64,000 nt of DNA, taken from contig CAZHUI010000008.1 of NCBI GenBank assembly GCA_964535605.1, positions 312 to 64,311 on the forward strand. Direction: 5' to 3'. This document shows positions 4,156-63,458 of the stretch, piece by piece. How positions within the stretch are numbered: the stretch's first letter is position 1; every line of letters begins with the position of its first letter. Source of the stretch: an uncultured Caulobacterales bacterium (GTDB lineage: Bacteria; Pseudomonadota; Alphaproteobacteria; Caulobacterales; Parvularculaceae). The position numbers were made by a program, and so were the translations under genes. The notes below the pieces were generated by a model. It was given only the letters and a program-made list of their open reading frames with translations, did not search any database and had not been told where the DNA came from.

Positions 4156-5016
4156 GTGCGCGCCGATATTGCCGCCATGAGTCTTTCCGGTCTTCCCTTC
4201 CGCAAGATGAACGGCCTTGGCAATGATTTTGTCATTGTCGATTTGCGCGGGGGACGCGCGCGCATGACCGAAGACGCCGCCCGCGCGATCGCCGACCGAA
4301 AGACCGGCGTCGGCTGCGATCAGGTCATCACCATCGAAGATCAGGACGGGCCCTATATGGGCGTCTGGAACGCCGACGGGTCGGAGGCGGGCGCCTGCGG
4401 CAACGCGGCGCGCTGCGTCGGCGCGATCCTGATGGGGGAAACAGGCGACGATGGCGTCGGCTTCGAGACGCGTTCAGGCTTCATCGCCGCCGAGCGCGTC
4501 GGCGCCAACCGCGTCGCCGTCGATATGGGCGCGCCGAAATTCCACTGGAAACAAATTCCGCTCGCGGAGGAAATTCAGGACACGCGCTTCGTCGACATCA
4601 AGCTCGGCCCCATCGACAAGCCCGTTTTGTGGGGCCCTTCGGCCGTCAATATGGGAAATCCCCACTGCATTTTCTTCGTCGATGACGTGACGGCGCACAA
4701 GCTCGAGATTTTCGGGCCGATGATTGAAAACCATCCGATGTTTCCCGACCGCGCCAATGTCTCGCTGGCGGAAGTCAAAGGACGCCAGCTCATTCGCCTG
4801 CGCGTCTGGGAGCGCGGCGCGGGGATCACGAAGGCCTGCGGCACCGCCGCTTGCGCCGCCGTCGTCGCCGCGAACCGGCGCCGGCTTACCGACCGCAAGG
4901 TCAGCGTCGAACTTGACGGCGGGCTGCTCGCCATTGAATGGCGCGATGACGACCATGTCATCATGACGGGCCCCTACGAATTCGAGTTCGACGGCGTCCT
5001 TCCGGAGGGCCTCTGA
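4156..5016 (+). CDS. dapF: Diaminopimelate epimerase
   Basis: KMNGLGNDF, CGNAARC, NMGNPH, ERGAGITKACGT motifs. Start GTG 4156 or ATG 4177. Confidence 0.97.
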   Translation: MRADIAAMSLSGLPFRKMNGLGNDFVIVDLRGGRARMTEDAARAIADRKTGVGCDQVITIEDQDGPYMGVWNADGSEAGACGNAARCVGAILMGETGDDGVGFETRSGFIAAERVGANRVAVDMGAPKFHWKQIPLAEEIQDTRFVDIKLGPIDKPVLWGPSAVNMGNPHCIFFVDDVTAHKLEIFGPMIENHPMFPDRANVSLAEVKGRQLIRLRVWERGAGITKACGTAACAAVVAANRRRLTDRKVSVELDGGLLAIEWRDDDHVIMTGPYEFEFDGVLPEGL

Positions 5017-5019
5017 GCC

Positions 5020-5604
5020 TTGGCGAAGCTCTACTTCAACTACGCCGCCATGAACGCCGGCAAATCGACGGCGCTCTTGCAGGCGGCGTTCAACTACCGC
5101 GAACGCGGCATGAAGACGCTGATCTTTACGGCCGCGATCGACCGGCGCGCCGGCGAAGGAATCGTCGCCTCGCGCATCGGTTTGCAGGCGCCCGCGCACG
5201 TCTTTGACGCCGCAACCGATCTTTTCGAGGAAATCGACGCGGCAATCCGCACCGACAGCGTATCCTGCATCTTCGTCGACGAGGCGCAGTTTCTCTCGCG
5301 CGAGCAGGCGATGCAGCTTGCCCGCGCCGTCGATCAACTCAATCTGCCTATCCTGTGCTTTGGTCTGCGGACTGATTTTCGCGGCGAACTGTTTCCGGGA
5401 AGCGAGCGGCTTCTCGCTGTCGCCGACGAAATCCGCGAACTGAAAACCATCTGTCATTGCGGACGCAAGGCGACGATGAATTTGCGCGTTGACGCCTCCG
5501 GCGGCGCGGTCGGCAGCGGCGCGACCATCGAAATCGGCGGCAATGAGCGGTATGTGCCGCTCTGCCGCAAGCATTTTTACGAACGGCTCGGCGCGGTGCG
5601 CTAG
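5020..5604 (+). CDS. tdk: Thymidine kinase
   Basis: AMNAGKST P-loop, VDEAQF, GLRTDF, CHCG zinc site, [14 protein letters not shown]. Confidence 0.97.
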
Positions 5605-8365
5605 CCGAACGCGTCGTAAAAGTGAGAAATGCCGACCGCAATTTCCTTGATGCGGCCATCGAGCGCGCGCAGCGGCTCGACGATTTCGCGCTGGATCTGC
5701 GGATAGCCGCCGGCCCCCTCGCCGCGCGGCGCGGCTTCGGCGAGGTCCGAGAGCGCCGCGGAAACCGGCGCAGTTTCCGGAAATATTTCCGAGATGACGC
5801 CCGCGACCTCCTCAAAGCGCAGATCGAGCGCCATATCGACAAGGTCTTCGTGCGTCATTTCATGGCGCGACGAGAACGCCGGGGTCGCAGCAGCCAGCGC
5901 AAAACCGTCGCTCACGAGCGCCAGCCGTATCGCGTGAAGGACGTAGAGCGGTTCGCTGAAGGCGGGCGGCGCGCTTTTTCCGATCAACGCGATCGCCGCG
6001 TCAAATTTCTGGCGGTCAATGGACAGGAGGTTGGCGAGGCGCCCCAGCGCGACGTCGAGCGCGCGCGCGTCGAGCCTGCCGGCGACGCGGTGCAAGGCGA
6101 GCGCCGCCCCGCGGTCGTCAAGCCGCGCCGCGGTCACGGTCCAGAACGCCGGATCATAAAGACTGGCGTACGTCCTGAGGATCGACAGCGACGTCAGCCG
6201 TCGCGCCGTCTCGGCCGCGCCCAGCACAAGGCGCATGCGCGCCGAGCCTTCGATAAGGTCGCGGAACCGCTCCGGCTCGCGCTCGGCCGCGGTCCCGACG
6301 CCGCCCATGACATTGGCGAGCGCGGCCAGCTGCTGCAGCACGGCGTTGTGCGGAATGGCGCGCAGCGCCCGCGCCTCCTCCTTCGCCCCCGGCTTGCCGC
6401 GGCGCAGACGCCGCGACCCCGACGAAGGCAGAAGATTTCTTGAGAAAGCGGCGAGCGCCGCCTGATAGTTTTCATCCGCCCACAAATCTTCCTGCCAGCC
6501 CTTGATCGCGCGATAGACATCCCAGGAAAAATTGATGTCCTTGTAATAGCGGTCGTTGAAATCGGCCTGCGGCGTTTCCTGCGACCACGCGAAGACCGAC
6601 TGGATCGTCGCTTCGGCGAGCGCGGGCGTCTGGAAATGCAGGAAACCGTCGCCGCCCTGAAAGCTCGTCTCCGCGTTGACGGCGATGCCGTCGCGCGCAA
6701 AGCGGCTGCGCGCCCAGGGCGTCATCAGATAGTCGAGCCGATCGCCGAAGCCGCCGGGATGAGCGCCCCGCCCCATCGATTCGCCGTGCGTATTGAAAAC
6801 GACGACCTCGACATCGGTGACGCGCCGGGCGCTCAAGGCCCGGCTGACGAGGATATGCAGGCGTTCGATCGCCAGGTCCGCCGCGATCTGGCCCATGAAG
6901 CGGCCGCTGTCGGAAAAGCCGCACTGGATCGACACGCGCCCGCGCCGGCGGACATAATCGACATACTCCTCTTCTTCGAGGAGACGCTCGATGAGGCGCC
7001 CGCCCCGCTCGATCGCGTCCGGCGTTTCGAACAGCGGCGAAATGTCGAGCCGGTGATCGACGCCGTAAAGGCGCGCCAGATAGATCGCGCCCATCACCGT
7101 CGCCGGCGCCTCGACTTCCGCGATCAGAAACCGGATCGGCGCGTCTTCGTCGATATGTTTCAGGATCTGCGCGCACAGCATGAACTGGCGGCGCGCCGTC
7201 ATCTGCTCTTCAAAGACGCTCGCGAAATTGATCGTGCGTTGCTCGGCCGATGCGGTCTTCGCCGCTGCGGCGTCGAGCGCGGTCCGGTCAAGAAAGGCGC
7301 GGTCGCCGCCAAGGCCGAGATCGGCGCGCAAGGCGGAGCGCACCTGCGCGGCGTTGACGCGCAAGTGAATACGCGCGACGCCGAGACCATAAAGGTCCAT
7401 TTCGGCGCGGATGACGGCGAGCGCGAAGGCGACGTCGTCATCGGCGCCGGCGATCAGCTGCGTCAGCGCCGCGCGCGCCTCGCGGAGCGAGGTCAAGCGC
7501 GCCGGTCCGTCCGCCGTCAGACGGTTGGCGGCGGCGACGACGGCGGCGGGATCGGTGAGGTCGGCGGCAAAGCCCTCCGCCTGCTCGGCCGCTTCCGCGC
7601 CGGCGTCGGCGAGCGCGGCGGCGAGACCGCGCGCCGGCTCGATCTTCTGCAGCGCCTTGGCGTACCGGAAAAGCTGCAGCGCTTTTTCCTCGAGGCGCAA
7701 CCGCACCGTCGTCGCCCAGTGAATATCGGTGCGCCCGTCCAGATCATAGCCGACCCAGGTCGCAAGACTTACCGGCGCCGGCGAGGCTTCGCGCCAGCGA
7801 TCCGGATGGCGTTCCTTCATCCAGCGCAACACCGAGATCGTCAGGGTACGGATCGCGTCCTGCGCGCGCCCGATCGCCCCTTGCACGTCTTCATGTTCGT
7901 CGAGCAGCGAGATCGGCCGGTCCGGCGTCTGTCGCGGCAGATCGACGGCGCCGAGCGCGCTGGAAGCAAGGTCGCCGATCAACCGGCGCGCCTCGCGCGA
8001 CAGCGCGAAGGTCGGGTGCGCGGTGAAGACAACGCCCGCCTTTGTCTGTTCGATCGACTGTTTGGCGATCTCGAACGGCTCTTCGTCAAGGCGGTCCCAG
8101 GCCCCGGCGATGAGATCGCTCCAGGCGCGAGGTGGCGCCTTCGCCGCGAGGCGGCGCGCCCGCTGCACGAGCGCTTCGTCGGCGATGAGTTTAGCGAGCG
8201 CCGAGAGTTTCTCGTGATCGATCTCGCCGGCCCTGAGCTTCTCGCGGAGATCGACCATCAACAGGCGCACGCCCGACGCCATCGGATCGCGTGTCGTCGA
8301 GGCTTCGTGCGCGCGAAGCCGTTCAAGGCACCAGTCGCGCAGCGCCGATATGTCCGCACCCGCCT

Positions 8366-8369
<4 letters not shown>
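5601..8369 (-). CDS. ppc: Phosphoenolpyruvate carboxylase-family protein (divergent subfamily)
   Basis: 922 aa; VFTAHPT, PLFET, GFSDSG, MGRG and LRAIP motifs recognisable, but several canonical catalytic residues are changed (see findings). Confidence 0.8.
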
Positions 8370-9844
<1,475 letters not shown>

Positions 9845-48560: not shown

Positions 48561-48871
48561 GGCGGGCGCCCCGATTTACCTTTAGCCAAGGCAATCCCGG
48601 ACCTTAGCGCGGTTTGCTTCAACACGACAGGCCGGCTGCCGCCTTGCGATGCAATCTGAGGCCGAAAAGGCGTAGGCGACTTAAGAAGCCGAAAGTGCAT
48701 CGCAAGGATTGCTGCCAGGCGTTTTGGAGAAGGGAACCGGCCGGCCCTATGCTCGCCGTTTCGCGTCCATTTTTCGCCCCGGCGCCCGTGACGATCATTA
48801 CACCCGGAAGCCGCCGCCGTATTTCAAAAGACGTCCTCGCCAACGCTGGACTAGGTCTGAATCGGCGGCTC

Positions 48872-48886
48872 TTAACATTTTGTTAG
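48872..48886. promoter_or_regulatory. Near-consensus CtrA box (TTAA-N7-TTAG)
   Basis: TTAA CATTTTG TTAG, one mismatch to TTAA-N7-TTAA, 54 bp upstream of the kinase ATG. Confidence 0.45.
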
Positions 48887-48939
48887 CCAATTCGGACATC
48901 TCTTTCATGGTGTTCTCAATCACTTCCCGCTTTCCAGCC

Positions 48940-51093
48940 ATGGACGGCTTCCGAAACGACGCTGAGACGAAGGCGACGCTTGAGCACGAAGAAATTCTGC
49001 GCGCGCGCGTCCTTGACGTCGGCGCTGCGGCGGCGGTGATCCTCACCCTCGCCCACGCCTTGTTGACTCAAATCGAAGTGTCAGGCTGGACCGACTCCCG
49101 GCTCGCCGGCGTTGCGGCCGCGCTTTTCTTTGCGCTCTGCCCGGTTATGCGTCGACTGACCGGCGGCGTGGCGTTGGCGGGATCTGTCTTTTTAACGACG
49201 CTGTTGGCGGCGTCGGCTTTTGCAGCGTTACGCAACGGAGGACTAACCGCGCCAACGACGGCGTTCATTATTCTTGCGCCGGCTATGGCCGGGCTGATGC
49301 TCGGCGGAAGAGCCGCGATCGTCACCGGATTGGCGAGCCTCGGCGTCCTCGCCCTTTTAGTGAACGCAAAGGAGATCGGCCTCGCGCGCTCGTCGCCGCA
49401 CACCTTAGCAGAACTTGAAGTGCTTCGGCTTTCGGCCATCGCGATCTCGGTCATAACCGCGACCGTCGTCGTAACTGCTTTTCAACTCGTTCTGCGCCGA
49501 ACCATCCTCGCCCTGAGCGTCGTAAACGCAGAGCTTACCGCATCAGAGAGCGGCATAAAGCGCAAAGCCGAAGAACTCGATCTGATCTTTAACAACGTGC
49601 CGGTGCACTTGTATTTCAAAGACGACCAGAACCGGATTCTCCGTGCGAACAAGACGGCTGCGTCCGGCGCGGGATGCCCGGTCGAAGCCCTCGTCGGCGC
49701 GCCGACTGAGGCTATATTTCCAGAATTGGCGGCGAAATATTTCGCGGATGATCTCGCCGTGATTGAGAGCGGCGCGCCGCGGCTCGGCATAATCGAGGAG
49801 CTTGCGCCGGCGAGCGGTCGGCGCGGCTGGGTGAGAACCGACAAGGTCCCTTATGTCGATCCTTCGACCGGCAAGCGATACGTGTTCGTGGCCGCGATCG
49901 ACATCACGGAGCAGCGGTTGGCGGAGCTCGCCCTCGCCGAAAGCGAGCAACGCTTCGCGCTCGCAGCGCAAGGGTCAGGTGCGGGCATCTGGGACTGGGT
50001 CGATGTCGCGGGCGACCGACATTTCTGGGCGGGGCGTTTCTTCGCGCTGCTCGGATACGCGCCCGACGAGATTGCGCCCTCGGCGACCGCGCTCCGCGCG
50101 CTTCTGCATCCGGCGGACAAAGCCGATTTCGATGCGGCGATGCAGGCGCATCTTTCAGGCGCGGAGCCGTTTCAGCGCGACCTGCGCCTGCGCCACAAAA
50201 CGCTTGGCTTTCGCTGGTATCGGATGACGGGACAAGCGATCTGGAACGACAAGGGCGAAGCAAGGCGCATGATCGGATCGATCATCGAGATCAATGCGGA
50301 AAAATGCGCCGAGGAGGCGTTAGTTGCGCGACAGCGCGCGCTTGAGCGTTCAATTCAAGATCTCAAAGCGTTTTCGCAAGCGGTGTCGCATGATTTGCGC
50401 TCTCCTTTGCGGGCCTTTGACCACCTCGCCGGCTGGGTCGAAGAGGAGCTTGCCGCAGGTCGCTTCGACGGCGCGAAGTCGCATCTCGTCATGATGCGCG
50501 TGCGTGTGAAACAGATGACTGAGCTGCTTGACGGCCTTCGTCTCTACGCGCTGGCGGGCGCGCGCGCGGAAATCGCCGAAACTGTGGCGAGCCGGCGTCT
50601 TGTCGAGCATTCGTTCGAGGTCTTGGCGCCTGCGTTTTTTTCGCTGAAGGTCGAGTCGGATCTGCCTGAATTCGAAACCGCCGCCGCGCCGCTTTCCCAG
50701 GTGTTTCGGAATCTGTTCGACAATGCGATCAAGCACCATGATCGTGAGGCTGGCGTCATCGCCGTGCGCCATTTCGAATCCGGGGACTTCTGGGCGTTCG
50801 AGGTCAGCGATGACGGGCCCGGCGTTCCGGCGGCGCATCACGAGCGCATCTTCGACATGTTCGAGGTCTTGCATCGACGCAATGAACATATGGGCGCCGG
50901 CGCGGGCCTTGCGATCGTAAAAAAATGCGTCGAAGCGGCGGGCGGGACCGTTGCTGTTTGGTCAGGAGCTCCGCTGGAGCGCGGGTCAACCTTTCGCTTC
51001 CTTTGGCCGAAGCGATGGCCGGAAACTGGCGGCGCTCGCGACGAGGCTGAAAACGCCGCGCTTCATCGCGCCGACGGTTCGCGCGCCGCTTGA
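48940..51093 (+). CDS. Membrane PAS-PAS sensor histidine kinase
   Basis: About five N-terminal TM helices, two PAS/PAC domains, VSHDLRSPL H-box, NLFDNAIKH, DDGPG, GAGAGL. Start uncertain (48907 or 48940). Confidence 0.92.
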   Translation: MDGFRNDAETKATLEHEEILRARVLDVGAAAAVILTLAHALLTQIEVSGWTDSRLAGVAAALFFALCPVMRRLTGGVALAGSVFLTTLLAASAFAALRNGGLTAPTTAFIILAPAMAGLMLGGRAAIVTGLASLGVLALLVNAKEIGLARSSPHTLAELEVLRLSAIAISVITATVVVTAFQLVLRRTILALSVVNAELTASESGIKRKAEELDLIFNNVPVHLYFKDDQNRILRANKTAASGAGCPVEALVGAPTEAIFPELAAKYFADDLAVIESGAPRLGIIEELAPASGRRGWVRTDKVPYVDPSTGKRYVFVAAIDITEQRLAELALAESEQRFALAAQGSGAGIWDWVDVAGDRHFWAGRFFALLGYAPDEIAPSATALRALLHPADKADFDAAMQAHLSGAEPFQRDLRLRHKTLGFRWYRMTGQAIWNDKGEARRMIGSIIEINAEKCAEEALVARQRALERSIQDLKAFSQAVSHDLRSPLRAFDHLAGWVEEELAAGRFDGAKSHLVMMRVRVKQMTELLDGLRLYALAGARAEIAETVASRRLVEHSFEVLAPAFFSLKVESDLPEFETAAAPLSQVFRNLFDNAIKHHDREAGVIAVRHFESGDFWAFEVSDDGPGVPAAHHERIFDMFEVLHRRNEHMGAGAGLAIVKKCVEAAGGTVAVWSGAPLERGSTFRFLWPKRWPETGGARDEAENAALHRADGSRAA

Positions 51094-51298: not shown

Positions 51299-51460
51299 CT
51301 ATGCGCCCACGAGAACGGCGCAGCAATTTCGCCAGACGTCATCGGCAACGCCCAGCATCGCCAAGGCCGCAACGACATGGATGGCGCAGACGAGTACTGG
51401 ATAACCAGGAGGCGTACGGCGCGCACCGTGAATAAGTTCGCGCGTGAGCATGCCGATCAT
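51299..51460 (-). CDS. Possible small hydrophobic peptide (53 aa, MIGMLT...)
   Basis: ATG 2 nt after the stop of the 51463..51657 ORF; one hydrophobic stretch; no recognisable family. Confidence 0.3.
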   Translation of the reverse strand: MIGMLTRELIHGARRTPPGYPVLVCAIHVVAALAMLGVADDVWRNCCAVLVGA

Positions 51461-51462
51461 GA

Positions 51463-51657
51463 CTAGATCGCCGACGTCGTTGTCAGGGCGACCCCATCCC
51501 AGCAAACGCGGCTATCGTCGACTAGAAGCCTGTCGAGATCGGCGCGTTCCGGACGGTCGATCGTCACCGCCGCGCAGCGGCGCTGCGCAAACGAATTTTC
51601 CGAATTGGACGTTATAATGTTTCCCATGCCGATAATGGCGGCGAACAGCGTCAGCAT
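51463..51657 (-). CDS. Small (64 aa) possibly exported peptide divergent from luxR
   Basis: Strong RBS GGGAGGG 7 nt before ATG; hydrophobic N-terminus; two Cys. Confidence 0.5.
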   Translation of the reverse strand: MLTLFAAIIGMGNIITSNSENSFAQRRCAAVTIDRPERADLDRLLVDDSRVCWDGVALTTTSAI

Positions 51658-51868
51658 TGTCGAGCCCTCCCAGCAACGTACCTTTCATAGTAGAGCCCCG
51701 CGCACGCGCGCCCATCCCCAAATGAGGAGGCGCCGCAAGGCCGAAGTGCGTCAGCGCGCCTCTTTACGTCGAGGCGCAAGCGGCGTCATGATTGCGGTCG
51801 CGATCTGTCGGGGGAGTAAAAGTCGACGTAACCTCTGTTAAGCAGCTTGCAAATAGGACCCTCTCATT

Positions 51869-52612
51869 ATGAGCCATGCCCCCGATCGGCTGGAGAGCTC
51901 CGGCGTTCTCGAGGCAATCGCGGCGATCGACGCCGGCGCGTCGTCGCAGGCCGTGTTCGACCGTTTCGCTGACTTTGTCGGCGTTTTCGGCTTCACGACG
52001 GTAGCGCTCGGTCATCTCGCCAATCCCGCGATGAAATCCGACCGGGCGAAAGACTGGTTCACGATAGGCAATTGGCCAGCCGACTGGCGGCGCGAATGGC
52101 TCGACCAAAGGTTAATCTTCCACGACCCGATCGCGCGCATGGCGCTGCGGACCCGCAAGACCTTCACCTGGAGCGCCGCCTATGAACAGGCGTCGCGTTT
52201 CGAGCGCGCCGTCCTCGATCTGAGCGCGGATTTCGGTTTCCGCGACGGCCTCGCCATTCCGTTATATACGGAGGACGGACCGCCCGGTTGCGTCTCCATT
52301 GGCGCTGCGTCTGTCGATGTCTCGCCGCGGGAAAGAGCTGCGATCGAACTCGTCGCCATTCACGCATATGCGTGTCTGGAGAAACTCCACGGCCCGTTCG
52401 CCTATCGTCCTGTGAAGAAACTTACCCCGCGCGAAGTCGATGTTCTGCATTTCGCAGCCGCCGGCAAGACAAACTGGGAAATCGGAACGATTCTGTCGAT
52501 CAGCGAGTTCTCCGTGCGCGATCATTTGTCATCCGCGCAGAGAAAGCTCAATTGCGTCAATCGCGCGCATGTCATCGCGACAGCGATGCAGCGCTGCCTG
52601 ATTTTTCCGTAG
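51869..52612 (+). CDS. luxR: LuxR-family quorum-sensing regulator
   Basis: Autoinducer-binding domain (NWP.DW...W........DP, FTW, DG) plus LTPRE.....AAGKTNWEI..IL.IS HTH. Confidence 0.93.
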   Translation: MSHAPDRLESSGVLEAIAAIDAGASSQAVFDRFADFVGVFGFTTVALGHLANPAMKSDRAKDWFTIGNWPADWRREWLDQRLIFHDPIARMALRTRKTFTWSAAYEQASRFERAVLDLSADFGFRDGLAIPLYTEDGPPGCVSIGAASVDVSPRERAAIELVAIHAYACLEKLHGPFAYRPVKKLTPREVDVLHFAAAGKTNWEIGTILSISEFSVRDHLSSAQRKLNCVNRAHVIATAMQRCLIFP

Positions 52613-53623
52613 TCAAGCCGCCGCCAAGTCGTCATAGAGGCGGGAGAGCGCGGCGCCCGGGAACGGTCGAGGCCAGACGCGCGGATAATCGCGCGAGTAG
52701 AGCGGGGCTCCGTCGGCGGGCGGCGTTTCGACCCAGGGCTGCGCGATCGCGCCGGCCTTATCGCAATACCGGATATCGTCGCCGCAATATCGGAATGAAA
52801 CGGCGCGGCGCATCCTGCGCGCGGATTTGTTTCCCGAACTTCCGTGCACGGCGAAGACGTCATGGATGACGACGTCGCCGGGCGCCGCATCGACGCGAAC
52901 TATGTCATAGCGGCTGCGGTCGCCTTCGATGTCCGGCAAGCGAGCGGCTTGACTTGCAGCCGTCGGCGTCTGGCTGATCAGCAGGTTTGGCGCAAACTCC
53001 TGATTCCAGAGATGCGATCCGCGCACATATTCCAGCGCGCCGTTCTCCTCATCGACGGGATCAAGCGGGATCCAGACGATGCAGCATTTGCGGCCGCTGA
53101 TCTGGAAATAGGTGTAGTCCTGATGGAAGGCCGTTCGTTGAGTTGCGCCCGGCGTCTTCACAAAGGTCGTGTCTTCCCAGAAATTGACATAGTCGCTGGC
53201 AAGAAGCGACGCGGCGATCTCAGGGAGGCCTGAGTCCAGCGCAACGCGGCGGATTTCCGGAAATCGTCGCCAGCCGGCCGCGTCGTAAAAAAACCGGCCC
53301 TCGGGCGCGCCGGTTTGCGGCTCGTCCAGCAGCGGACGCGCGGCGGGATCGGCGTCGATAGCCGATTTGAGCCGGCTCATGTCAAAGCGAGAGGCGCCGC
53401 GGGCGTCGAGACTGCGGTCGCCGCCCCAGACCTGACGCGCAAGGTCCTGAAAGTCATAAGCCGACGTCGAGCGCCCGAAGGCGCCGAGTTGGCGATCGAC
53501 GGCGGCGCGCAGAAGATCGACCTCATCCGGCGAGAGGGCGCCGGAGATCTTGACGAAGCCGTCGCGCGCGTAAGCGTCAGCGAGCGCAGGATCGAGATCG
53601 GCGGCGGCAAAGACACTGGTCAC
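52613..53623 (-). CDS. Fe(II)/2-oxoglutarate dioxygenase, PhyH family
   Basis: RDGFV start, HQD...H facial triad (FHQDY, VHGS), WIPLD.V...NGAL..V.GSH, RRAVSFRY; GTG start overlaps the luxI TGA. Confidence 0.9.
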   Translation of the reverse strand: MTSVFAAADLDPALADAYARDGFVKISGALSPDEVDLLRAAVDRQLGAFGRSTSAYDFQDLARQVWGGDRSLDARGASRFDMSRLKSAIDADPAARPLLDEPQTGAPEGRFFYDAAGWRRFPEIRRVALDSGLPEIAASLLASDYVNFWEDTTFVKTPGATQRTAFHQDYTYFQISGRKCCIVWIPLDPVDEENGALEYVRGSHLWNQEFAPNLLISQTPTAASQAARLPDIEGDRSRYDIVRVDAAPGDVVIHDVFAVHGSSGNKSARRMRRAVSFRYCGDDIRYCDKAGAIAQPWVETPPADGAPLYSRDYPRVWPRPFPGAALSRLYDDLAAA

Positions 53624-54297
53624 GCCGCTCTCCGCGGCTCGGCGTCAAGCCAGCGCGGGTCGATCGCATCCCAGCGTTCGCGAATGACAAGGGCCGGCTC
53701 GCCGGGCGCCAGCGAAAAAGACGTTCGCAAGCGCGCAAGCCCTTCGGCCGTCATCTGTGAGATTGCGGCGACATAAGTCTGGTCGTCGTCCGGAAATTCC
53801 TGCGGCAAACCGAGAGGCGCAGTGTCCCACACTTGCACTGCGCGCTGATACATGGAGCGGTAGGAGAACCACGACAGGGCCCGGACGCCGGTGCGCAGAC
53901 AAAACTCATTAATGCCCGCCGAGAGGCGCCCGCGAATGCGGAACTGATCATCCTTGGACAGCGCCGCGTGATCGATCACATACCGCGAAAACTCGTAAAT
54001 TGAGGGATCGCGCGGCGGCGGCTGCAAATCGCAGAACTCGTGGAATACATCGGTCAGCATATGCGGGCCGGTCGTTGGATTAAGGCGCGCGGCGCCGACG
54101 AGGCGCTCGCCGGCGCCGGCGTAAGCAAGCACATAGATAGTGTGATCGGTATCGAAGGCGTCCTTGTCGTATCCGGGGACGACGCCGGGAATTTTCCATC
54201 CCCACTGCTCGACGGCGACGCGGTACCGCAGACGATACATGTCGTCGAGCGTGGCTCGACGCGCAGCGTGGTCGCCAGGGGTGATGATTTCGATCAT
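53620..54297 (-). CDS. luxI: LuxI-family acyl-homoserine-lactone synthase-like protein (atypical)
   Basis: YRLRYRV....WGW, D.FD, Y.L, GAARL.PT..P.ML..VF, YEFSRY motifs. Confidence 0.85.
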   Translation of the reverse strand: MIEIITPGDHAARRATLDDMYRLRYRVAVEQWGWKIPGVVPGYDKDAFDTDHTIYVLAYAGAGERLVGAARLNPTTGPHMLTDVFHEFCDLQPPPRDPSIYEFSRYVIDHAALSKDDQFRIRGRLSAGINEFCLRTGVRALSWFSYRSMYQRAVQVWDTAPLGLPQEFPDDDQTYVAAISQMTAEGLARLRTSFSLAPGEPALVIRERWDAIDPRWLDAEPRRAA

Positions 54298-54351
54298 GGC
54301 TATCTCCCGTAACTGCGGTGGAGTGTTCAGCGAAGGGCGCCTTAGACGCCA

Positions 54352-54369
54352 CCCCTACAGTCGTAGGGG
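54352..54369. promoter_or_regulatory. Perfect 18-bp palindrome, candidate lux-type box
   Basis: CCCCTAC-AGTC-GTAGGGG centred about 63 bp upstream of the luxI ATG. Confidence 0.6.
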
Positions 54370-54462
54370 GGCAAGCTTCGGGCGAACCAATTATGGACGG
54401 GCTTTGGTATTGAACTCGCGTTTTGCACGCCTTCGCTCGTCAACCAAAGAGGCCACGCCAGC

Positions 54463-54915
54463 ATGGAGATGACGCCGATCCTGTTTCTCATCGACGACGA
54501 CGCGGTCGATCAGGAAGTGTTCCGCCGCGCGCTCGCCGCCGAAGGCGTCGCTGTAGAGATCGCGGTGATCGGCGAAGGAAACGGCGCGGCGGCGAAGGTG
54601 AAGGAGCGGCTGGCGTCGACGAGCGCCGGCAGGCAGGCGCTGGTTGTTCTCGACCTCAACATGCCGGGCGTGAACGGCTTTGAAGTTCTGGCGGCGCTGA
54701 GGGCGGAGCCGGCGACACGGCTGACGCCGGTCGTCGTATTTTCGACGTCCACTGATCGGGAGGATGTCAGACGCGCCTACGGTCTCGGAGCGAATTCATA
54801 TGTCGCCAAGCCCAGCGAATTTCCTGCTTTCAAACGCGCAGTGCGCGTTATTACTGACTATTGGTTCGCTGTCGCGACCGGTGCGGCGCCGCAATGGCCG
54901 CGCCGGGCGAGCTAA
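54463..54915 (+). CDS. Single-domain response regulator (Rcp1-like)
   Basis: IDDD, LDLNMPG.NG, FSTS, NSYVAKP. Confidence 0.92.
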   Translation: MEMTPILFLIDDDAVDQEVFRRALAAEGVAVEIAVIGEGNGAAAKVKERLASTSAGRQALVVLDLNMPGVNGFEVLAALRAEPATRLTPVVVFSTSTDREDVRRAYGLGANSYVAKPSEFPAFKRAVRVITDYWFAVATGAAPQWPRRAS

Positions 54916-55018
54916 ACTCTCACCTCCTCATTTGGGGATAGCGGCCGGCGCGGGCTGTCTTATGATCGGCATGCTCACAATCGCACAATTCCCCGCGTGG
55001 ACGAGCATGCACCCAAGA

Positions 55019-55052
55019 GGCCGCGTCTTCCCCGGACGCGGCCTATTTTTTT
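55019..55052 (+). terminator. Rho-independent terminator
   Basis: GGCCGCGTC-TTCCCCG-GACGCGGCC followed by TATTTTTTT. Confidence 0.8.
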
Positions 55053-55164
55053 CCCGCGTGATCGGCGCGCGCCCTCCCCATCTGCGGATATCGGCGCCCA
55101 GTTCTTAGGCTAGGATTGTTTGGTTGCGATGCGCCGATGCGATCGTCGGCAACAGGAGGGGCGG

Positions 55165-55725: not shown

Positions 55726-56068
55726 CGCCTTGCGGCGAGGATTTGCGGCACAGCTTCACGCGCACCGCCCGTCGGCCAGGCCGCGGCGGCTCTACTGACG
55801 CCGGTCGCGCGCTTCTGACGTCGACTTTTTTGAGAGAGCGAGCGCGCGATGGCGCTCCTTTTTACCGCGTGATCGGCGCGGACCTTCCAGCGCTAATGCC
55901 TAGGCCCTCCATTCGCTTGCAACGCGGCTGACCTTTTGGCGTTCCCAGCGCGAAAGGCGGCGGCGCTGCCCCGGCGTGGCGCAGCTTTTGAGGCCACGCC
56001 GCGCCTTCGACACTAATCTGTCTACGGACGGGAATAGGGCGCGGTTCCGGCCTGGGGCGCCCGATTGA

Positions 56069-56353: not shown

Positions 56354-56435
56354 TGCGCCCCTCCCTGGACTCTGCCGGATCTGGGTACCGCAGAGTTGTC
56401 GGGGCCGATACCCTCAAATGAAGGGCCTGTCGCGC

Positions 56436-58751: not shown

Positions 58752-58958
58752 GTTCGCTGCCCCTCACCCGCCAGCGTTAGGGTTACCGCTGCTCGCCGAT
58801 GAAGGCTGCCCTCATATGAGGGGCCTCGCGTTTTCTCCTTCTGGCCGAGCGAGCGTTGCGCGCCGACGGCCTGTCGCAAACAAGGCGGGAGTTCGATGAA
58901 AATTAAGAATTAAATGTAGAGATTAAGCGCGGAGTTCGGCTGTCGGGGAGAACGGGCG

Positions 58959-61250
58959 ATGATTTTTGAATCCGGCGGCGTTTGGCCGGGGTCGCCGCTT
59001 TGGGCTGCCGGCGTCGAGGTCGCCTTGGCCGCGGGTCTGGCCGGAATTGCAGCGTCTCTCGCCGAGGCGGCGCGGCGTTCGTCACTTCGCGAGCGACGCA
59101 GAGGATTTGCCATCAGCGCGACGCTGTTCGGTGTGACAGCCGTCGCCACTATCGCGGCGGCCGGCGTCGACGCCGAAAGCGCAGCGGTACGCGCAACAGC
59201 GACCGGCGCGGCGTCGCTGCTCTTCTTGGCGGCGGCGGTTCAGTTGCGCGGGCTTTTGTTGACCCTCGCCGCTTCTCCGACAATCAGCGCGCTCGAATCG
59301 GCGTTGACGCAGCTTGAAGACGAACTCGCGAGGCGGAAGAAGTTTGAAAGCGATCTTGGCCGGAAGGGCGATGAACTCCGCGCCTCCAATGCGAGCCTCA
59401 AGGAAGCGGCAACGGCGCTTCGCGCAAGCGAAGACCGCTTGGCGATTGCGCTTGACGCCGGCAGTGTCGGCTTGTGGGACTGGAATTTGACGACGGGCGA
59501 AACCTGGTGCTCGGCGCGCTGGTTTGAGATTCTCGGCCAGTCGGCGATGCCCGCCGACCAAGGGCGCAAGGCCTGGCGGGCGGCTGTTTCCGCAGCGGAG
59601 GAGACGCGCCTGCGCGCGGCGCTTGAAGCGCATCTGCGCGAGGGCGCTGAATTTCATCTGGGGTTCTGCATCAAGACGCCCGCGGGCGAGGAACGTTGGG
59701 TCGAGGCGTCCGGCCGTGCGCTGCGAGACGGAAACGGCGCGCCGACGCGCATGGCGGGCGCCATGATAGACGTGACGGAAGCAAAGCGCGCGCAAGAGAC
59801 GCTCATACGAACGGAAGCCTTCGAGCGCGCGGTGCTGGAGACCGTCGGCGACGGCATCGTCGCATGTGACGAGAGCGGCCGATTGGTGCTGTTCAACCAT
59901 GTCGCGCGCGCATTCCACGGTCTTGACGCCGAGCCGATCGCGGCGCCCGACTGGGCGGCGCGTTACGATCTTTTCGAGCCCGACGGGCGAACCCCCTTAA
60001 CGCTGGAGCGCGTGCCGCTGGCGCGCGCGCTCGCGGGCGAAACCGTCGCGGGCCAGGAAATGGTGATAGCGCCGCGCGATCTGCCCCGCCGGCTGGTGGA
60101 GGTGCACGCCGCGCCGCTGGTTGATCGGTCAGGGCGCCGGATCGGCGCCGTCGCGGCGATGCGGGATGTCACGCGTGAGCGCGCCGCGATCGCCGAGCTG
60201 GCGCGCAAGACGAGCGAGCTTGAACTTGTCTTCAATCATGTGCCGGTAGAGCTTTGGCATCTGACCGCGGCGGGCGCAGTCAGGCGCGCCAACTCACACG
60301 CCGCGGCGGCGCTTGGTCTTGACGTCGCTTCGATTGAGGGCGCGCAACTCGCCGATTTACCGCCGCCAGCGGCCCGGCTTTTTGGCGCGCGCACAGCGGC
60401 GCCCAACGATGCGCAGGACTCGATCGAAGAGCATCGAGGCCCCGATGGCGCGGCGCGTTGGCTGAAGGTCCATCGTGTTCCCTATAGGGACGACGCGACC
60501 GGCGAGGAGCTGCTGTTCGCGGCGGCGACGGACATCACGCAGACGATGCTCGCGAAGATGGAGCTTTGCCGCTCGAATGAAGAGCTCGAACAGTTTGCGC
60601 GCGCCGCGGCGCATGATCTGCGCGAGCCGTTGCGCAAGATTCTCTGCTTCAGCGAATTTCTCGCCCGCGATCTCGGCGACGGCTTGCCCGCGACGGCGAG
60701 AGCCGATCTTGATATCATCGTCGCGGCGGCGCGCCGCATGGAGTCGCTGATACACGGAATTTTGTCGATGGCGCGGTTCGAGGCGGGCGCGCCAGACCTC
60801 GCCCCGACGGACCCGCGCGCCTGCATCGACGCGGCGCTGAGCCAGTTGCAGCTGCCGCCAGAACGCGCTGTTCGATTCGCCTTTGATCCGATGCCGCCGG
60901 TACTGGCGGACCGCGACCTCCTTGTTCAAGTGTTCCAGAACCTGATCGGCAACGCAGTTAAGTTCGCGCGGCCAGGCGGCGGCGTCGAAATCGCCTTCAC
61001 GTCGGCGTCGGAGGCGGAGGGCGACGCGATCATCGGCGTTGCGGACAATGGCATCGGCGTGCCGGAAGCAGATCGGCGGGCGATTTTTGAGCCGCTGACG
61101 CGCCTGCATCCGCGCGAGGCTTATGAGGGAACCGGCATCGGTCTCGCGCTTTGCAAAAAATCGATCGACCGGCTCGGCGGCGAGATCTGGATGGAGCCGA
61201 GCGCAAGCGGCGGAGCGCATTTCCGGGTGCGGCTTCGGCGCGCGGCGTGA
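58959..61250 (+). CDS. Multi-PAS sensor histidine kinase with N-terminal TM domain
   Basis: Three TM segments, three PAS domains, AAHDLREPL, NLIGNAVKF, DNGIG, GTGIGL. Confidence 0.92.
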   Translation: MIFESGGVWPGSPLWAAGVEVALAAGLAGIAASLAEAARRSSLRERRRGFAISATLFGVTAVATIAAAGVDAESAAVRATATGAASLLFLAAAVQLRGLLLTLAASPTISALESALTQLEDELARRKKFESDLGRKGDELRASNASLKEAATALRASEDRLAIALDAGSVGLWDWNLTTGETWCSARWFEILGQSAMPADQGRKAWRAAVSAAEETRLRAALEAHLREGAEFHLGFCIKTPAGEERWVEASGRALRDGNGAPTRMAGAMIDVTEAKRAQETLIRTEAFERAVLETVGDGIVACDESGRLVLFNHVARAFHGLDAEPIAAPDWAARYDLFEPDGRTPLTLERVPLARALAGETVAGQEMVIAPRDLPRRLVEVHAAPLVDRSGRRIGAVAAMRDVTRERAAIAELARKTSELELVFNHVPVELWHLTAAGAVRRANSHAAAALGLDVASIEGAQLADLPPPAARLFGARTAAPNDAQDSIEEHRGPDGAARWLKVHRVPYRDDATGEELLFAAATDITQTMLAKMELCRSNEELEQFARAAAHDLREPLRKILCFSEFLARDLGDGLPATARADLDIIVAAARRMESLIHGILSMARFEAGAPDLAPTDPRACIDAALSQLQLPPERAVRFAFDPMPPVLADRDLLVQVFQNLIGNAVKFARPGGGVEIAFTSASEAEGDAIIGVADNGIGVPEADRRAIFEPLTRLHPREAYEGTGIGLALCKKSIDRLGGEIWMEPSASGGAHFRVRLRRAA

Positions 61251-61255
61251 CGGCT

Positions 61256-62272
61256 TCAGGCGGCGGAGAACAGCGCAAGCCGCACAAGCTCAGCCTGCTT
61301 TGAGACGCCGGTCTTGTGATAGACATTTTTGAGATAGGTACGCGCCGTGCTGAGCGATACGCCGGCGCCGCGCGCTGCTTCCTCGACGCTGCCGCTTTCA
61401 ACAAGGCCGTGAACGATTCGCGCTTCGCTTGGCGTGAGGCCGAGCGCAACGCCAAGTTGACCAGGTTCTGCGACGGCCCGGCGCGCAGGGTCGGAAAGTA
61501 CGAGATGAACATGCCGTTCAGCGCCGGCGCTTGTCGCAGCGACGACGGTCAGCATGACCGGCGCAACGTCATTGCGAGAGTCAAGGCGCAGAACAGCGGG
61601 CGCCTCCGACGACAAGGATCGGTCCGCTGCGTCGCGCAGGAAGCCGAACAGGCTTGTCGCCGCTTTCGGATCGGCGGGCTTTAACAGCGCTGGGTTGCGG
61701 TGGTCGAATGCGCCGTGTTCGGCGAGGATGCGACGGGCGGGACTGTTGGCGTAAATGATGCGCCCTTCGGTATCGACGGTGAGGATCGCCGTGGTCATCT
61801 GATCGAACGCGCCGACCGCCGCGCCGGAAACGGAGCGTTGCCGGCGCTGCTCAATCTCGGCTCGTGCGGCGTCGAGCCCCGGACCCAGCGTCGCGGCGCG
61901 CGCCGGCTTCATCAAGAAGCGAAAGGCGTGCGCGTCGTTCATCGCCGCCAGCGCCGAGTCGAGATCGGCTTCGCCGGACAGGAGCATGTAAACCGTGTCT
62001 GGCGCGAACTCCTTCATGGCGCTGATCATCTTGAGGCCGGTGGTGGCGCCGAGCTTGAGGTCGGAGAGGACGATGTCAAACGGCGCCTCGCGATGGGCCT
62101 CGATTGCGCGCCGCGGCGAACCGAAATAGGCGCGCTCAAATGGCGGACACAACGTGTCTATGACCGCCTTGAGCTGGTCGAGCGCGAGGGGGTCATCATC
62201 GACGCAAAGCAGGCGGATGATCGGCCAGACCATGACAAAACTCCGGTCCGCGCGAAGCGCGGAAAATTTCAC
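61256..62272 (-). CDS. Response regulator with REC, PAS-like and LuxR-type HTH domains
   Basis: VDDD...SDLKLG...LSG...KP; LTPSEARIV...G.SVEEAA.....S..TARTYLK..Y.KTG...QAELV. Start may be ATG 62233. Confidence 0.88.
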   Translation of the reverse strand: MKFSALRADRSFVMVWPIIRLLCVDDDPLALDQLKAVIDTLCPPFERAYFGSPRRAIEAHREAPFDIVLSDLKLGATTGLKMISAMKEFAPDTVYMLLSGEADLDSALAAMNDAHAFRFLMKPARAATLGPGLDAARAEIEQRRQRSVSGAAVGAFDQMTTAILTVDTEGRIIYANSPARRILAEHGAFDHRNPALLKPADPKAATSLFGFLRDAADRSLSSEAPAVLRLDSRNDVAPVMLTVVAATSAGAERHVHLVLSDPARRAVAEPGQLGVALGLTPSEARIVHGLVESGSVEEAARGAGVSLSTARTYLKNVYHKTGVSKQAELVRLALFSAA

Positions 62273-62330: not shown

Positions 62331-63458
62331 ATGACCGGCGAGCCCATCAATGTTCTGATGATCGATGATGATCCGACCGATTTCAGGATCATCGCTCGTC
62401 ATTTGGAGACGGTGCGCGCGCCGGGATACAAGGTCACGCCGGCCGCCGACTTCGAGGCGGCGCGCCGCGCCCTCGCCGAGCGCGAATTCGATGTTGCGCT
62501 GGTCGATTACCGGATGCCAGGCGGCGCGAGCGGTCTCGACTTCGTCAATAGTATGGGCGGCCGCGAAGCCGATCTCCCCTTTATCATTCTGACCGGCATG
62601 GCCGACGGCGATCTCGACCGTCAGGCTCTGCTCGCCGGCGCTTATGACTACATCGACAAAATGGCGTTGACGCGCGAACTCGTCGATCGTGCGATCCGCT
62701 TCGCGGTGTCGAGTTTCCGGTACGAACGCGACTTGCGCGCGGCGGTGACGACAGCGCAAGAGCAGGCTACGATCAACCGGCGGATCCTCTCTATTGTCAG
62801 TCATGAAATGAGGTCGCCCTTACGCTCGATCACCGGCTACGCCGAACACCTGATCGAGCATTCGGCCAATGCGCCGGCGCGAGACGCCGCCCGGAAAATG
62901 CGCGCGGCGAGTCTCGTTCTCGAAGACTTCCTGAACAATCTTTCCGAATTTGTCCGGCTTGATGAAGGGGCGGCGCGGCTTTCTCCGGAGGCCTTCGCGC
63001 TTGATCAAATGATTGAGGAAACGGTCGATCTGTTTTTGCCCTACGCGCACCACAAATCCATCGCGATCGATACGGCGATTGATGCGTCGGCGCGCACAAC
63101 CGTCACCGCCGACCGGTTGCGGCTGCGGCAGGTGCTCATCAATATCGTCAAGAACGCCGTCAACTACTCAGACGGAGGCGCTATTTCGGTGAAGGCGCGA
63201 ATCGAGGCCGGCGTCGCCGAAATCAGGGTTTCGGACTCAGGTCTCGGAATTGCGCCTGAAAAGCTCGCTGCGCTGATGTCGTCGGACGCCTGGGCGCCGC
63301 ATCCGAGCCGCAGCCTCGACGGCGGACTCGGCATAGGCTTGTCGATCTGCCGGCGCCTTCTGCGGCTGATGAGCGGCTCATTGAGGCTCGAAAGCGCCGA
63401 AGGTTTCGGCACGACGGTAACGATCACAATTCCGGTGGTTTCAGAATTGCCATCCTAG
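62331..63458 (+). CDS. REC-HisKA-HATPase hybrid kinase
   Basis: IDDD...VDYRMPG...LTG...DK, VSHEMRSPL, NIVKNAVNY, DSGLG, GLGIGL. Confidence 0.92.
   Translation: MTGEPINVLMIDDDPTDFRIIARHLETVRAPGYKVTPAADFEAARRALAEREFDVALVDYRMPGGASGLDFVNSMGGREADLPFIILTGMADGDLDRQALLAGAYDYIDKMALTRELVDRAIRFAVSSFRYERDLRAAVTTAQEQATINRRILSIVSHEMRSPLRSITGYAEHLIEHSANAPARDAARKMRAASLVLEDFLNNLSEFVRLDEGAARLSPEAFALDQMIEETVDLFLPYAHHKSIAIDTAIDASARTTVTADRLRLRQVLINIVKNAVNYSDGGAISVKARIEAGVAEIRVSDSGLGIAPEKLAALMSSDAWAPHPSRSLDGGLGIGLSICRRLLRLMSGSLRLESAEGFGTTVTITIPVVSELPS

Follow-up and report, generated by a model that had tools for sequence, protein, structure and literature searches.

Inverted 17-nt repeats around a luxR-luxI module of an uncultured Parvularculaceae bacterium as probable members of an island-wide family of operators and promoters

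The window analysed here, a stretch of 64,000 nucleotides (nt) on contig C8 of a 3.39-Mb assembly of an uncultured bacterium of the Parvularculaceae, holds an island of about 14 kb that encodes three histidine kinases, a REC-kinase, receivers, a PilZ protein, LuxR, LuxI and a REC-PAS-GerE regulator. Two blocks in inverted orientation, which share two 17-mers termed A and B, bracket luxR, a gene for a PhyH-family dioxygenase, luxI and a gene for a stand-alone receiver (51869..54915). An earlier note on this DNA had taken the blocks either for a duplicated outward-facing promoter or leader or for the ends of an invertible or mobile segment. The genes and blocks are listed in the order of the window; the domains were assigned by Pfam searches.

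48709-51093, plus strand: HK1, a histidine kinase with a PAS domain
51299-51730, minus strand: left block
51869-52612, plus strand: luxR
52613-53623, minus strand: PhyH dioxygenase gene
53620-54297, minus strand: luxI
54463-54915, plus strand: stand-alone receiver (RR)
54923-55053, plus strand: right block
55146 (ATG) to 55725 (end), plus strand: pilZ, with a PilZ domain
56353-56069, minus strand: orf94
58751-56436, minus strand: HK2, a hybrid kinase with an Hpt domain
58959-61250, plus strand: HK3, a PAS kinase
61256..62272, minus strand: REC-PAS-GerE response regulator (GerE match of 18.3 bits, curated cut-off 23.5)
62331-63458, plus strand: REC-kinase

The 17-mer A (CCTCCTCATTTGGGGAT) is found at 54923-54939 on the plus strand and at 51714-51730 on the minus strand, the 17-mer B (ATGATCGGCATGCTCAC) at 54962-54978 on the plus strand and at 51444-51460 on the minus strand. 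Direct reading and a repeat scan agree that both pairs are perfect, 100% complementary, collinear and in the same relative order, exactly where and in the inverted orientation in which the earlier note had placed them. The spacing described there holds as well. In the right block A and B are separated by 22 nt, joined through TATGA with the junction between T and ATGA; in the left block 228 extra nt, counted on the minus strand from the ATGA at 51688-51685 to the ATGA at 51460-51457, entirely contain an open reading frame (ORF) of 64 codons (51657-51463). Exact A and exact B are each confined to these two places in the whole assembly, in which the next-nearest matches to either have 2 mismatches, so that the genome-wide scan called for in the note does not make them frequent repeats. 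Lone exact 17-mers shared by a 465-nt query and a GC-rich genome are not rare (three unrelated ones were seen), and the non-random signal is the occurrence of two collinear 17-mers within one 56-nt target, not that of any single 17-mer. By our own estimate the chance of finding B alone, given both A sites, is about 1e-5. Outside the 17-mers the similarity is low, the spacer being about 60% identical and the 30-nt arm I1 80%. Because the blocks are so poorly alike outside the 17-mers, they are not one recent continuous duplication.

DNA searches with both units across 60 relatives gave nothing usable, since the locus is too diverged at the level of species representatives, and usable relatives were obtained solely through protein-anchored searches. 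The metagenome contig FRDC01003633.1 (L058), with a LuxI 83% identical to that of the window, is collinear with the window across HK3-HK2-orf94-pilZ-RR-luxI-phyH-luxR-orf64-orf53-HK1, where orf64 and orf53 are two small genes of the left block. In L059 (LuxI 83%) the right unit and the pilZ unit were confirmed, and in L183 and L184, which were reached via homologues of orf53, the left unit beside luxR. A locus with a LuxI 64% identical (L016) comes from a Parvularculaceae metagenome-assembled genome that also bears the designation G035 and belongs to the window's genus.

A contains a palindromic operator of the 7-2-7 type, (C)TCCyCA-WW-TGrGGA(T), with the core dyad CCTCA-TT-TGGGG. With its flanks it consists of two inverted heptamers with a 2-bp spacer and is 16-17 bp long. 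A is identical in both blocks because it comprises this operator plus conserved CCTCC/GAT flanks. The operators, the predicted -10 elements and the other features of the two blocks and their surroundings are the following (SD, Shine-Dalgarno sequence).

51714..51730, minus strand: operator A, left copy, exact, with the palindromic core CCTCATTTGGGG at 51716-51727; near-identical and at the same position in L058, L183 and L184
51687..51692, minus strand: predicted left -10, TACTAT, 21 nt after the 17-mer; TAGTCT, TATTCT and TAAACT at the same spacing in L058, L183 and L184, respectively
51463..51657, minus strand: orf64, encoding a small two-Cys protein predicted to be exported, with the SD GGGAGGG at 51665-51671
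51299..51460, minus strand: orf53, encoding a predicted small membrane protein of 53 residues (LTRELIHGxRRTPPGYPVAVCA..AAL..LG..D.WR)
51444..51460, minus strand: B, left copy, codons 1-6 of orf53 (M I G M L T)
54352..54369, minus strand: separate 18-bp lux-type box, CCCCTAC-N4-GTAGGGG, upstream of luxI and not of the A family
54923..54939, plus strand: operator A, right copy, with orthologous sites in L058 (CCTCCCCAAATGGGGAT) and L059
54961..54966, plus strand: predicted right -10, TATGAT, 21 nt after the 17-mer; TATGGT in L058 and TAAGAT in L059 at the same spacing
54962..54978, plus strand: B, right copy, running from the last 5 nt of the -10 across the discriminator into about the first 6 nt of the RNA
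54973..55053, plus strand: predicted small RNA of about 80 nt, with a 5'-terminal hairpin carrying a AAUUCCCC loop, a spacer and a terminator; the 5' end is set at -10 + 7
55018..55044, plus strand: intrinsic terminator hairpin of 11 bp with the loop UUCCCC, followed by T7
55073-55089, plus strand (unit 55073..55116): third A-type unit, before pilZ, with the operator CCTCCCCATCTGCGGAT, a more diverged copy
55111-55116, plus strand: predicted -10 of the pilZ unit, TAGGAT, 21 nt after the operator
56410..56426, minus strand: fourth A-type operator, before orf94, with the core CTTCATTTGAGG at 56412-56423
58809..58822, minus strand: fifth A-type operator, the perfect palindrome CCCTCATATGAGGG, 59 nt upstream of HK2

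Five A-type sites thus lie within 7.4 kb of the window, before orf64-orf53, the RNA, pilZ, orf94 and HK2, and L058 has an operator at each of the matching positions. The pilZ operator has the orthologues CCCTCCCAATCTGCGGATAG in L058 and CCCTCCCTATCTGCGGATAG in L059. The operator before orf94, a gene with the SD GGGAGGGG, recurs in L058 at the same position (4012, CTCCATTTGGGG), where it is followed by an orf94 homologue of 47% identity. The HK2 operator has an orthologous site in L058 (1584, CCTCAATTGGGG), and a similar site also precedes HK2 in L016, which together with the rest of G035 has at least four operator sites, found before the orf64-orf53 homologues, an RNA-like unit and HK2. With one mismatch at most, CCTCATTTGRGG occurs at 19 sites genome-wide as against 4 for the reversed control, and four of these 19 fall within a single 7.1-kb stretch, in which about 0.04 would be expected; the four are the sites of orf64, of the RNA, of orf94 and of HK2, the last matched at 58810-58821. 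A TAnnnT motif follows the 17-mer at a distance of 21-23 nt in 14 of 19 operator instances drawn from the window, L058, L059, L183, L184, L016 and G029, a further congener; the chance per site is about 1.5%, assuming DNA with about 17% A and 17% T. At the left, right and pilZ sites of the window, TAnnnT starts exactly 21 nt after the 17-mer.

From these data we conclude, with a probability of roughly 0.68, that the two blocks are two members of a set of at least five activator-type promoters within one island, which amounts to an ordinary regulon architecture. A transcription start about 7 nt after the -10 would put the centre of the operator near -41.5, the class II-like geometry of promoters under a dimeric activator. 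According to this scheme a GerE-type dimer would bind operator A and, from its position near -41.5, contact RNA polymerase; the left promoter would transcribe an orf64-orf53 operon, the right promoter the RNA of about 80 nt, and the third copy of the promoter, right after it, would drive pilZ. The site would act in activation, as opposed to repression. Of the duplicated outward-facing promoter that the earlier note had proposed, the shared operator, the fixed -10 and the arrangement with a peptide cassette behind one promoter and an RNA behind the other are retained, but the pair is not special among at least five such promoters. The proposed -10-like TATGA fits the right-hand element, TATGAT, but not the left-hand one, which reads TACTAT. 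As to conservation in relatives, the A sites occupy conserved positions, but the nucleotide sequence of B is not conserved.

Several observations weigh against this assignment. The orf94 sites of both genomes and the HK2 site of the window have only TAnnn(A/G/C) at 22 nt, and the site before a GGDEF gene in G029 shows no TAnnnT inside the gap range searched. A -35-like hexamer was not recognisable at the A-type promoters, and a scan with the sigma-70 consensus gave no promoters in the region, so that the promoters are defined by the -10 pattern alone. Sigma-54 promoters and promoters of the extracytoplasmic function (ECF) type were also considered for A; on reading the sequence they were ruled out by the spacing and by the lack of GG/GC or GGAAC/CGTT elements. 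A pattern scan of genome contigs with CCTCCNCAWWTGGGGAT gave at least 120 matches, mostly unrelated chance occurrences spread over phyla, with one in Aquisalinus (L122).

The left promoter precedes two small genes for which no Pfam family was found. The product of orf64 has a hydrophobic N-terminus, its SD is conserved in relatives, and in an alignment of five sequences the residues M1, A7, C28, A29, V31, L41, C52 and W53 are invariant, the second invariant Cys being part of a C-W pair (C52-W53). The L058 homologue is 48% identical in a tblastn comparison. The homologues of orf53, among them P0001 and P0002 (53 amino acids each, 67-72% identical) and that of L058 (68%), follow orf64 directly, within a few bases, in every case, and their hydrophobic segment peaks from about residue 22. 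The two are real conserved small genes which, judged by their predicted features, code for an exported two-Cys protein and a small membrane protein. An internal promoter for orf53 at the left copy of B was considered and rejected, there being no operator at the required distance.

The right unit has what is generally expected of a small RNA, namely its own predicted promoter, a conserved structure, an intrinsic terminator and no conserved ORF. The terminator hairpin is kept in L058 and L059 with two compensatory pairs, and the fold z-scores of the RNA range from -4.5 to -7. A design of two hairpins with a C-rich loop is common to the window, L058, L059 and L016, although the stem sequences differ: GCUC/GAGC and CGC/GCG in the window, (U)CUC/GAG(A) and UCACG/CGUGA in L058 and L059, and CGUUCCG/CGGAACG in L016. 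The right unit is probably a terminated small RNA, since a coding function fails on three counts. The frame that begins MIGMLT reads on across the terminator, neither ATG is present in L059, and a frameshift in the window disrupts the ORF with SD and ATG that is seen in L058 and L059. A search of Rfam gave two sub-threshold matches only, the better of which, suhB/mmgR (RF00519), scored 19.6 bits against a gathering threshold of 41 (E = 1.3). Like the C-rich-loop small RNAs of the suhB/MmgR type, the RNA measures about 80 nt, is intergenic and has a 5' hairpin, an intrinsic terminator and a promoter of its own; unlike them it lacks the CUCCC motif, and the sub-threshold match covers mostly the terminator. 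As in trans-acting small RNAs of alphaproteobacteria, its unpaired C-rich motifs (AAUUCCCC and UUCCCC) could pair with G-rich Shine-Dalgarno sequences. The genes orf64, orf94 and pilZ share unusually G-rich SDs, GGGAGGG(G) or GGAGGGG, at 51665-51671, about 56361-56368 and about 55135-55141, respectively, and an anti-SD relation of the two UUCCCC motifs of the RNA to these sequences is possible. The pilZ promoter follows directly on the RNA, which places two A-type promoters in tandem.

The island encodes LuxR and the REC-PAS-GerE regulator, both of the GerE type, and either would be a candidate for binding operator A. A search of 37 genomes from the genus found more than one strict copy of CTCCNCAWWTGNGGA only in G000, G035 and G029, all of which have a homologue of the regulator (47% identical on the L016 contig, next to pilZ, and 40% in G029). 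G029 is 98% complete and has no LuxR at E<=1e-15 and no LuxI at E<=1e-20; it nonetheless has tandem A-type promoters (L196, G029:C10, 1086-2328), and the regulator lies 8 kb away from these, beyond two kinases. Since this genome carries A-type promoters without LuxR and LuxI, the regulator is the likelier binder. NarL/FixJ-class regulators, which combine REC with a GerE helix-turn-helix domain, use 7-2-7 heptamer sites. Operator A likewise has two inverted heptamers with 2-bp spacing, and the island likewise encodes a REC-(PAS)-GerE regulator, which is kept together with the operator cluster in G000, G035 and G029. The A sites would control genes of their own island, namely those of kinases, that of a PilZ or GGDEF protein, and small genes. 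Unlike in NarL, the regulator has a PAS domain, its GerE match lies below the Pfam cut-off, and the heptamer mTCCyCA is unrelated to that of NarL. On the sequence data we favour the regulator over LuxR as the binder of A, giving the former about an even chance and the latter a clearly smaller one. The reservations are that the GerE match falls short of the cut-off (18.3 vs 23.5 bits), that the co-occurrence of operator and regulator is drawn from three genomes, that four other congeners with regulator homologues of 36-41% identity are without strict operator copies, and that the left half of A (CCnCnnCA) resembles a half-site of the luxI box.

The strongest of the alternatives, though still an unlikely one, is that A is the quorum-sensing box of the adjacent LuxR with its acyl-homoserine lactone, and that LuxR governs a regulon made up of the small-protein operon, the RNA, pilZ, orf94 and the kinase, the quorum-sensing module thus being in direct control of its flanks. 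LuxR/TraR-type activators act from a lux box centred near -41.5, and the predicted position of A is thus the classic one. As at the lux and tra boxes of Vibrio fischeri luxI and Agrobacterium TraR, a palindrome lies some 41-42 bp upstream of the inferred start, overlaps the -35 region of a promoter without a good -35, is common to several promoters of the locus and has a GerE-type helix-turn-helix protein encoded nearby. Only 139 nt separate the divergent luxR from the left operator, the left unit lies next to luxR in every case (window, L058, L183 and L184), and in L016 the units still flank RR-luxI-phyH. Moreover, when A and the luxI box are aligned on their centres, 5-6 of 9 positions agree between the 5' half of the former (CCTCCyCAw) and the half-site of the latter (CCCCTACAa). 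What speaks against LuxR, apart from the A-type promoters of a congener devoid of LuxR and LuxI, is the box in front of luxI itself. Lux and tra boxes measure 18-20 bp and the dyad of A only 14-16 bp (7-2-7); the 18-bp luxI palindrome fits instead, its half-sites each being 2 bp more distant from the centre. This palindrome, CCCCTAC-N4-GTAGGGG, is conserved in all five loci examined (window, L058, L059, L016 and L060) and is the obvious candidate for the LuxR box. In addition, no A site occurs in the 5.9 kb of L060, which has the luxI-phyH-luxR set and belongs to the same clade, nor at five LuxR/LuxI loci of 43-50% identity, and in L016 luxR is 9 kb away from luxI. The idea that LuxR binds the shared site, put forward in the earlier note, is therefore probably not correct. 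On this evidence the quorum-sensing genes seem to sit within the transcriptional output of the island and not to control it. A literature search on the ExpR box of Sinorhizobium, intended for comparison with CCCC...GGGG dyads, gave nothing usable.

In contrast to A, B is not kept in the relatives. The starts of orf53 in L058, L183 and L184 differ from it (ATGCTGGCGTTTTTGAC, ATGCTTGGTTTCTTGAC and ATGATCGCGTTTCTCAC), as do its right-hand counterparts, TATGGTGCAGGTTCTCGTCAC and, in L059, which has no ATG here, TAAGATCGGCGGCCTCATCAC. B consists of orf53 codons on the left and of core-promoter DNA on the right, so that it does not qualify as the shared leader or regulatory motif for which it had been taken. 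The two copies in the window share a derived GGCATG, which specifies Met where the other three 53-residue homologues have Phe, and a derived CTCAC without the ATC/GTC triplet of the right copies of L058 and L059. That the paralogues of the window are more alike than their orthologues points to concerted evolution. B is probably a short lineage-specific patch of gene conversion or templated repair between two loosely similar segments 3.5 kb apart, with no conserved role. It speaks against such an origin that conversion over a patch of 17 nt with about 60% flanking identity is mechanistically unusual, and that an older likeness between the 5' region of the RNA and the 5' end of orf53 is marginal, with p about 0.02-0.06 for some pairs and nothing in others.

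Another origin of the right block would be a deletion of 228 nt, from ATGA to ATGA, in a copy of the left unit, whereby the promoter became fused to the 5' end of orf53 and the stump of orf53 turned in time into the small RNA; of this old duplication the ends, A and B, would survive. The spacing between the two ATGA sequences of exactly 228 nt agrees with this proposal, as does a weak resemblance of the RNA 5' regions of L058, L059 and L016 to the 5' ends of orf53, for example CTCGTCACGCGAA vs CTCACCCGCGAA, with Smith-Waterman p values of about 0.02-0.06 in several pairs. We nevertheless consider it rather improbable. The resemblance is missing in many pairs; the distance from A to TATGA differs by 3 nt between the blocks, and the functional left -10 is predicted to be TACTAT, not TATGA. 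The RNA gene already exists in L016, which makes the event old, and perfect 17-mers amid flanks of about 60% identity are not unaltered relics of an old event (0.6^17, or about 2e-4, for B alone).

Much less probable is a function of B in the RNA, by which the 3' arm of the first hairpin would be antisense to the start of orf53, the 5' arm would be a target mimic, and the RNA would control the translation of orf53. The arm CCGCGUGGACGAGCAUGCA of the window is predicted to pair with nt 8-24 of orf53 at -25.2 kcal/mol, a duplex in the lowest 2% relative to random 50-nt windows of the genome. However, this pairing follows automatically from the presence of B at both places, only about 6 nt of B lie in the RNA if it starts 7 nt after the -10, and equally good alternative sites exist in the same mRNA. 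The same test gave no significant result for L058 (P = 0.21) or L016 (P = 0.75), and windowed folding and genome-background tests gave no support for a conserved RNA-orf53 interaction. We attach similarly little weight, or slightly less, to a homogenised pair of target and mimic, in which the RNA repeats the first codons of orf53 in sense orientation in its promoter-proximal 5' arm, and this arm competes with the mRNA for the antisense arm opposite. If so, this bacterial small RNA would have arisen out of the 5' end of the gene that it targets and would be evolving in concert with it, a parallel to the proposed origin of plant microRNAs by inverted duplication.

The least probable of all these explanations has the 17-mers as inverted termini, either of an invertible promoter segment or of a mobile or composite element with luxR, dioxygenase, luxI and RR. 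Two 17-nt inverted repeats do bracket a functional module, as short inverted repeats surround segments of a few kb in fimS/hin switches and composite mobile elements, and the unit found on one side of the luxI core in the L016 lineage lies on the other side in the window/L058 lineage, and vice versa, which attests rearrangements over evolutionary time, but order and orientation are identical in the window, L058, L059 and L184, the units of L016 are direct (on the same strand) and thereby incompatible with an inversion switch, the arms extend over only 17 nt in diverged surroundings, there are no target-site duplications, and the same operator stands at three further promoters outside the bracket. 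Pfam searches of 19 ORFs between about 44.9 and 63.5 kb, smaller ORFs being unscanned, returned only signalling, LysR, MFS and AhpC families or no match, and thus no recombinase, integrase or transposase family among the ORFs scanned. Nothing suggests a programmed inversion switch, and this half of the earlier note's proposal is given up.

With the two blocks read as operators and promoters of a common family, an apparent structural oddity becomes a regulon map for an uncultured alphaproteobacterial genus of the Parvularculaceae. One 16-bp operator would link a phosphorelay, a reader of cyclic di-GMP, two unannotated small proteins and an undescribed small RNA around an acyl-homoserine lactone synthase and its receptor. 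The two small proteins and the probable small RNA are new annotations. The kinds of elements involved (a shared operator, activator promoters, a terminated small RNA, small proteins and a conversion patch) are all well known, and the value of the map lies in annotation and hypothesis; it supplies directly testable parts in the form of the operator, the -10 elements, the RNA ends and two candidate regulators.

Further observations concern individual parts of the locus. The genes luxI and phyH lie on the same strand with a 4-bp overlap (53620-53623), and the pair is also kept in L058, L016, L060, L051, L054, L062 and L017; this conserved pairing suggests an enzymatically modified acyl-homoserine lactone signal. 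Downstream of the HK2 operator GGTAACCCTAAC is kept in the window (58764-58785) and in L058 (1610-1630) with a spacing difference of 6 nt, and it may hold an atypical -10 (TAACCC/TAACAT). The first of the A-type promoters of G029 is followed by an RNA-like unit of about 150 nt with a strong terminator (1236-1275), and the second by a PAS-GGDEF gene, so that the link to cyclic di-GMP is a synthase there and a PilZ reader in the window. On the HK1 side, L184 adjoins genes for an integrase (rve), DUF5681, a ParB-N6/N4 methylase, a helix-turn-helix protein and Peptidase_M78 (4818-8754), a prophage- or island-like neighbourhood with no counterpart in the window.

Traces of additional operator-like sequences were seen around pilZ. 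A 30-nt direct repeat (TTTTTCCCGCGTGATCGGCGCG..., 87% identity) is located at 55048-55077, after the RNA terminator, and at 55859-55888, where it comes behind a hairpin on the downstream side of pilZ. Beyond the second copy lies a degenerate operator-like stretch, CCTTCCAGCGCTAAT, possibly a decayed duplicate of the junction between the terminator and the pilZ promoter. Downstream of pilZ in L016 (3396-3471) the operator-like sequences CCCTCATTTGGAGGG and CCCTCATTTATGGAGGG face each other at a distance of 59 nt and form a long inverted repeat, which may represent divergent promoters or a hairpin. On another contig of the same genome (G035:C190:6111-6126) there is a further perfect operator-like palindrome (CTCCGCAAATGAGGA / CTCCTCATTTGCGGA).

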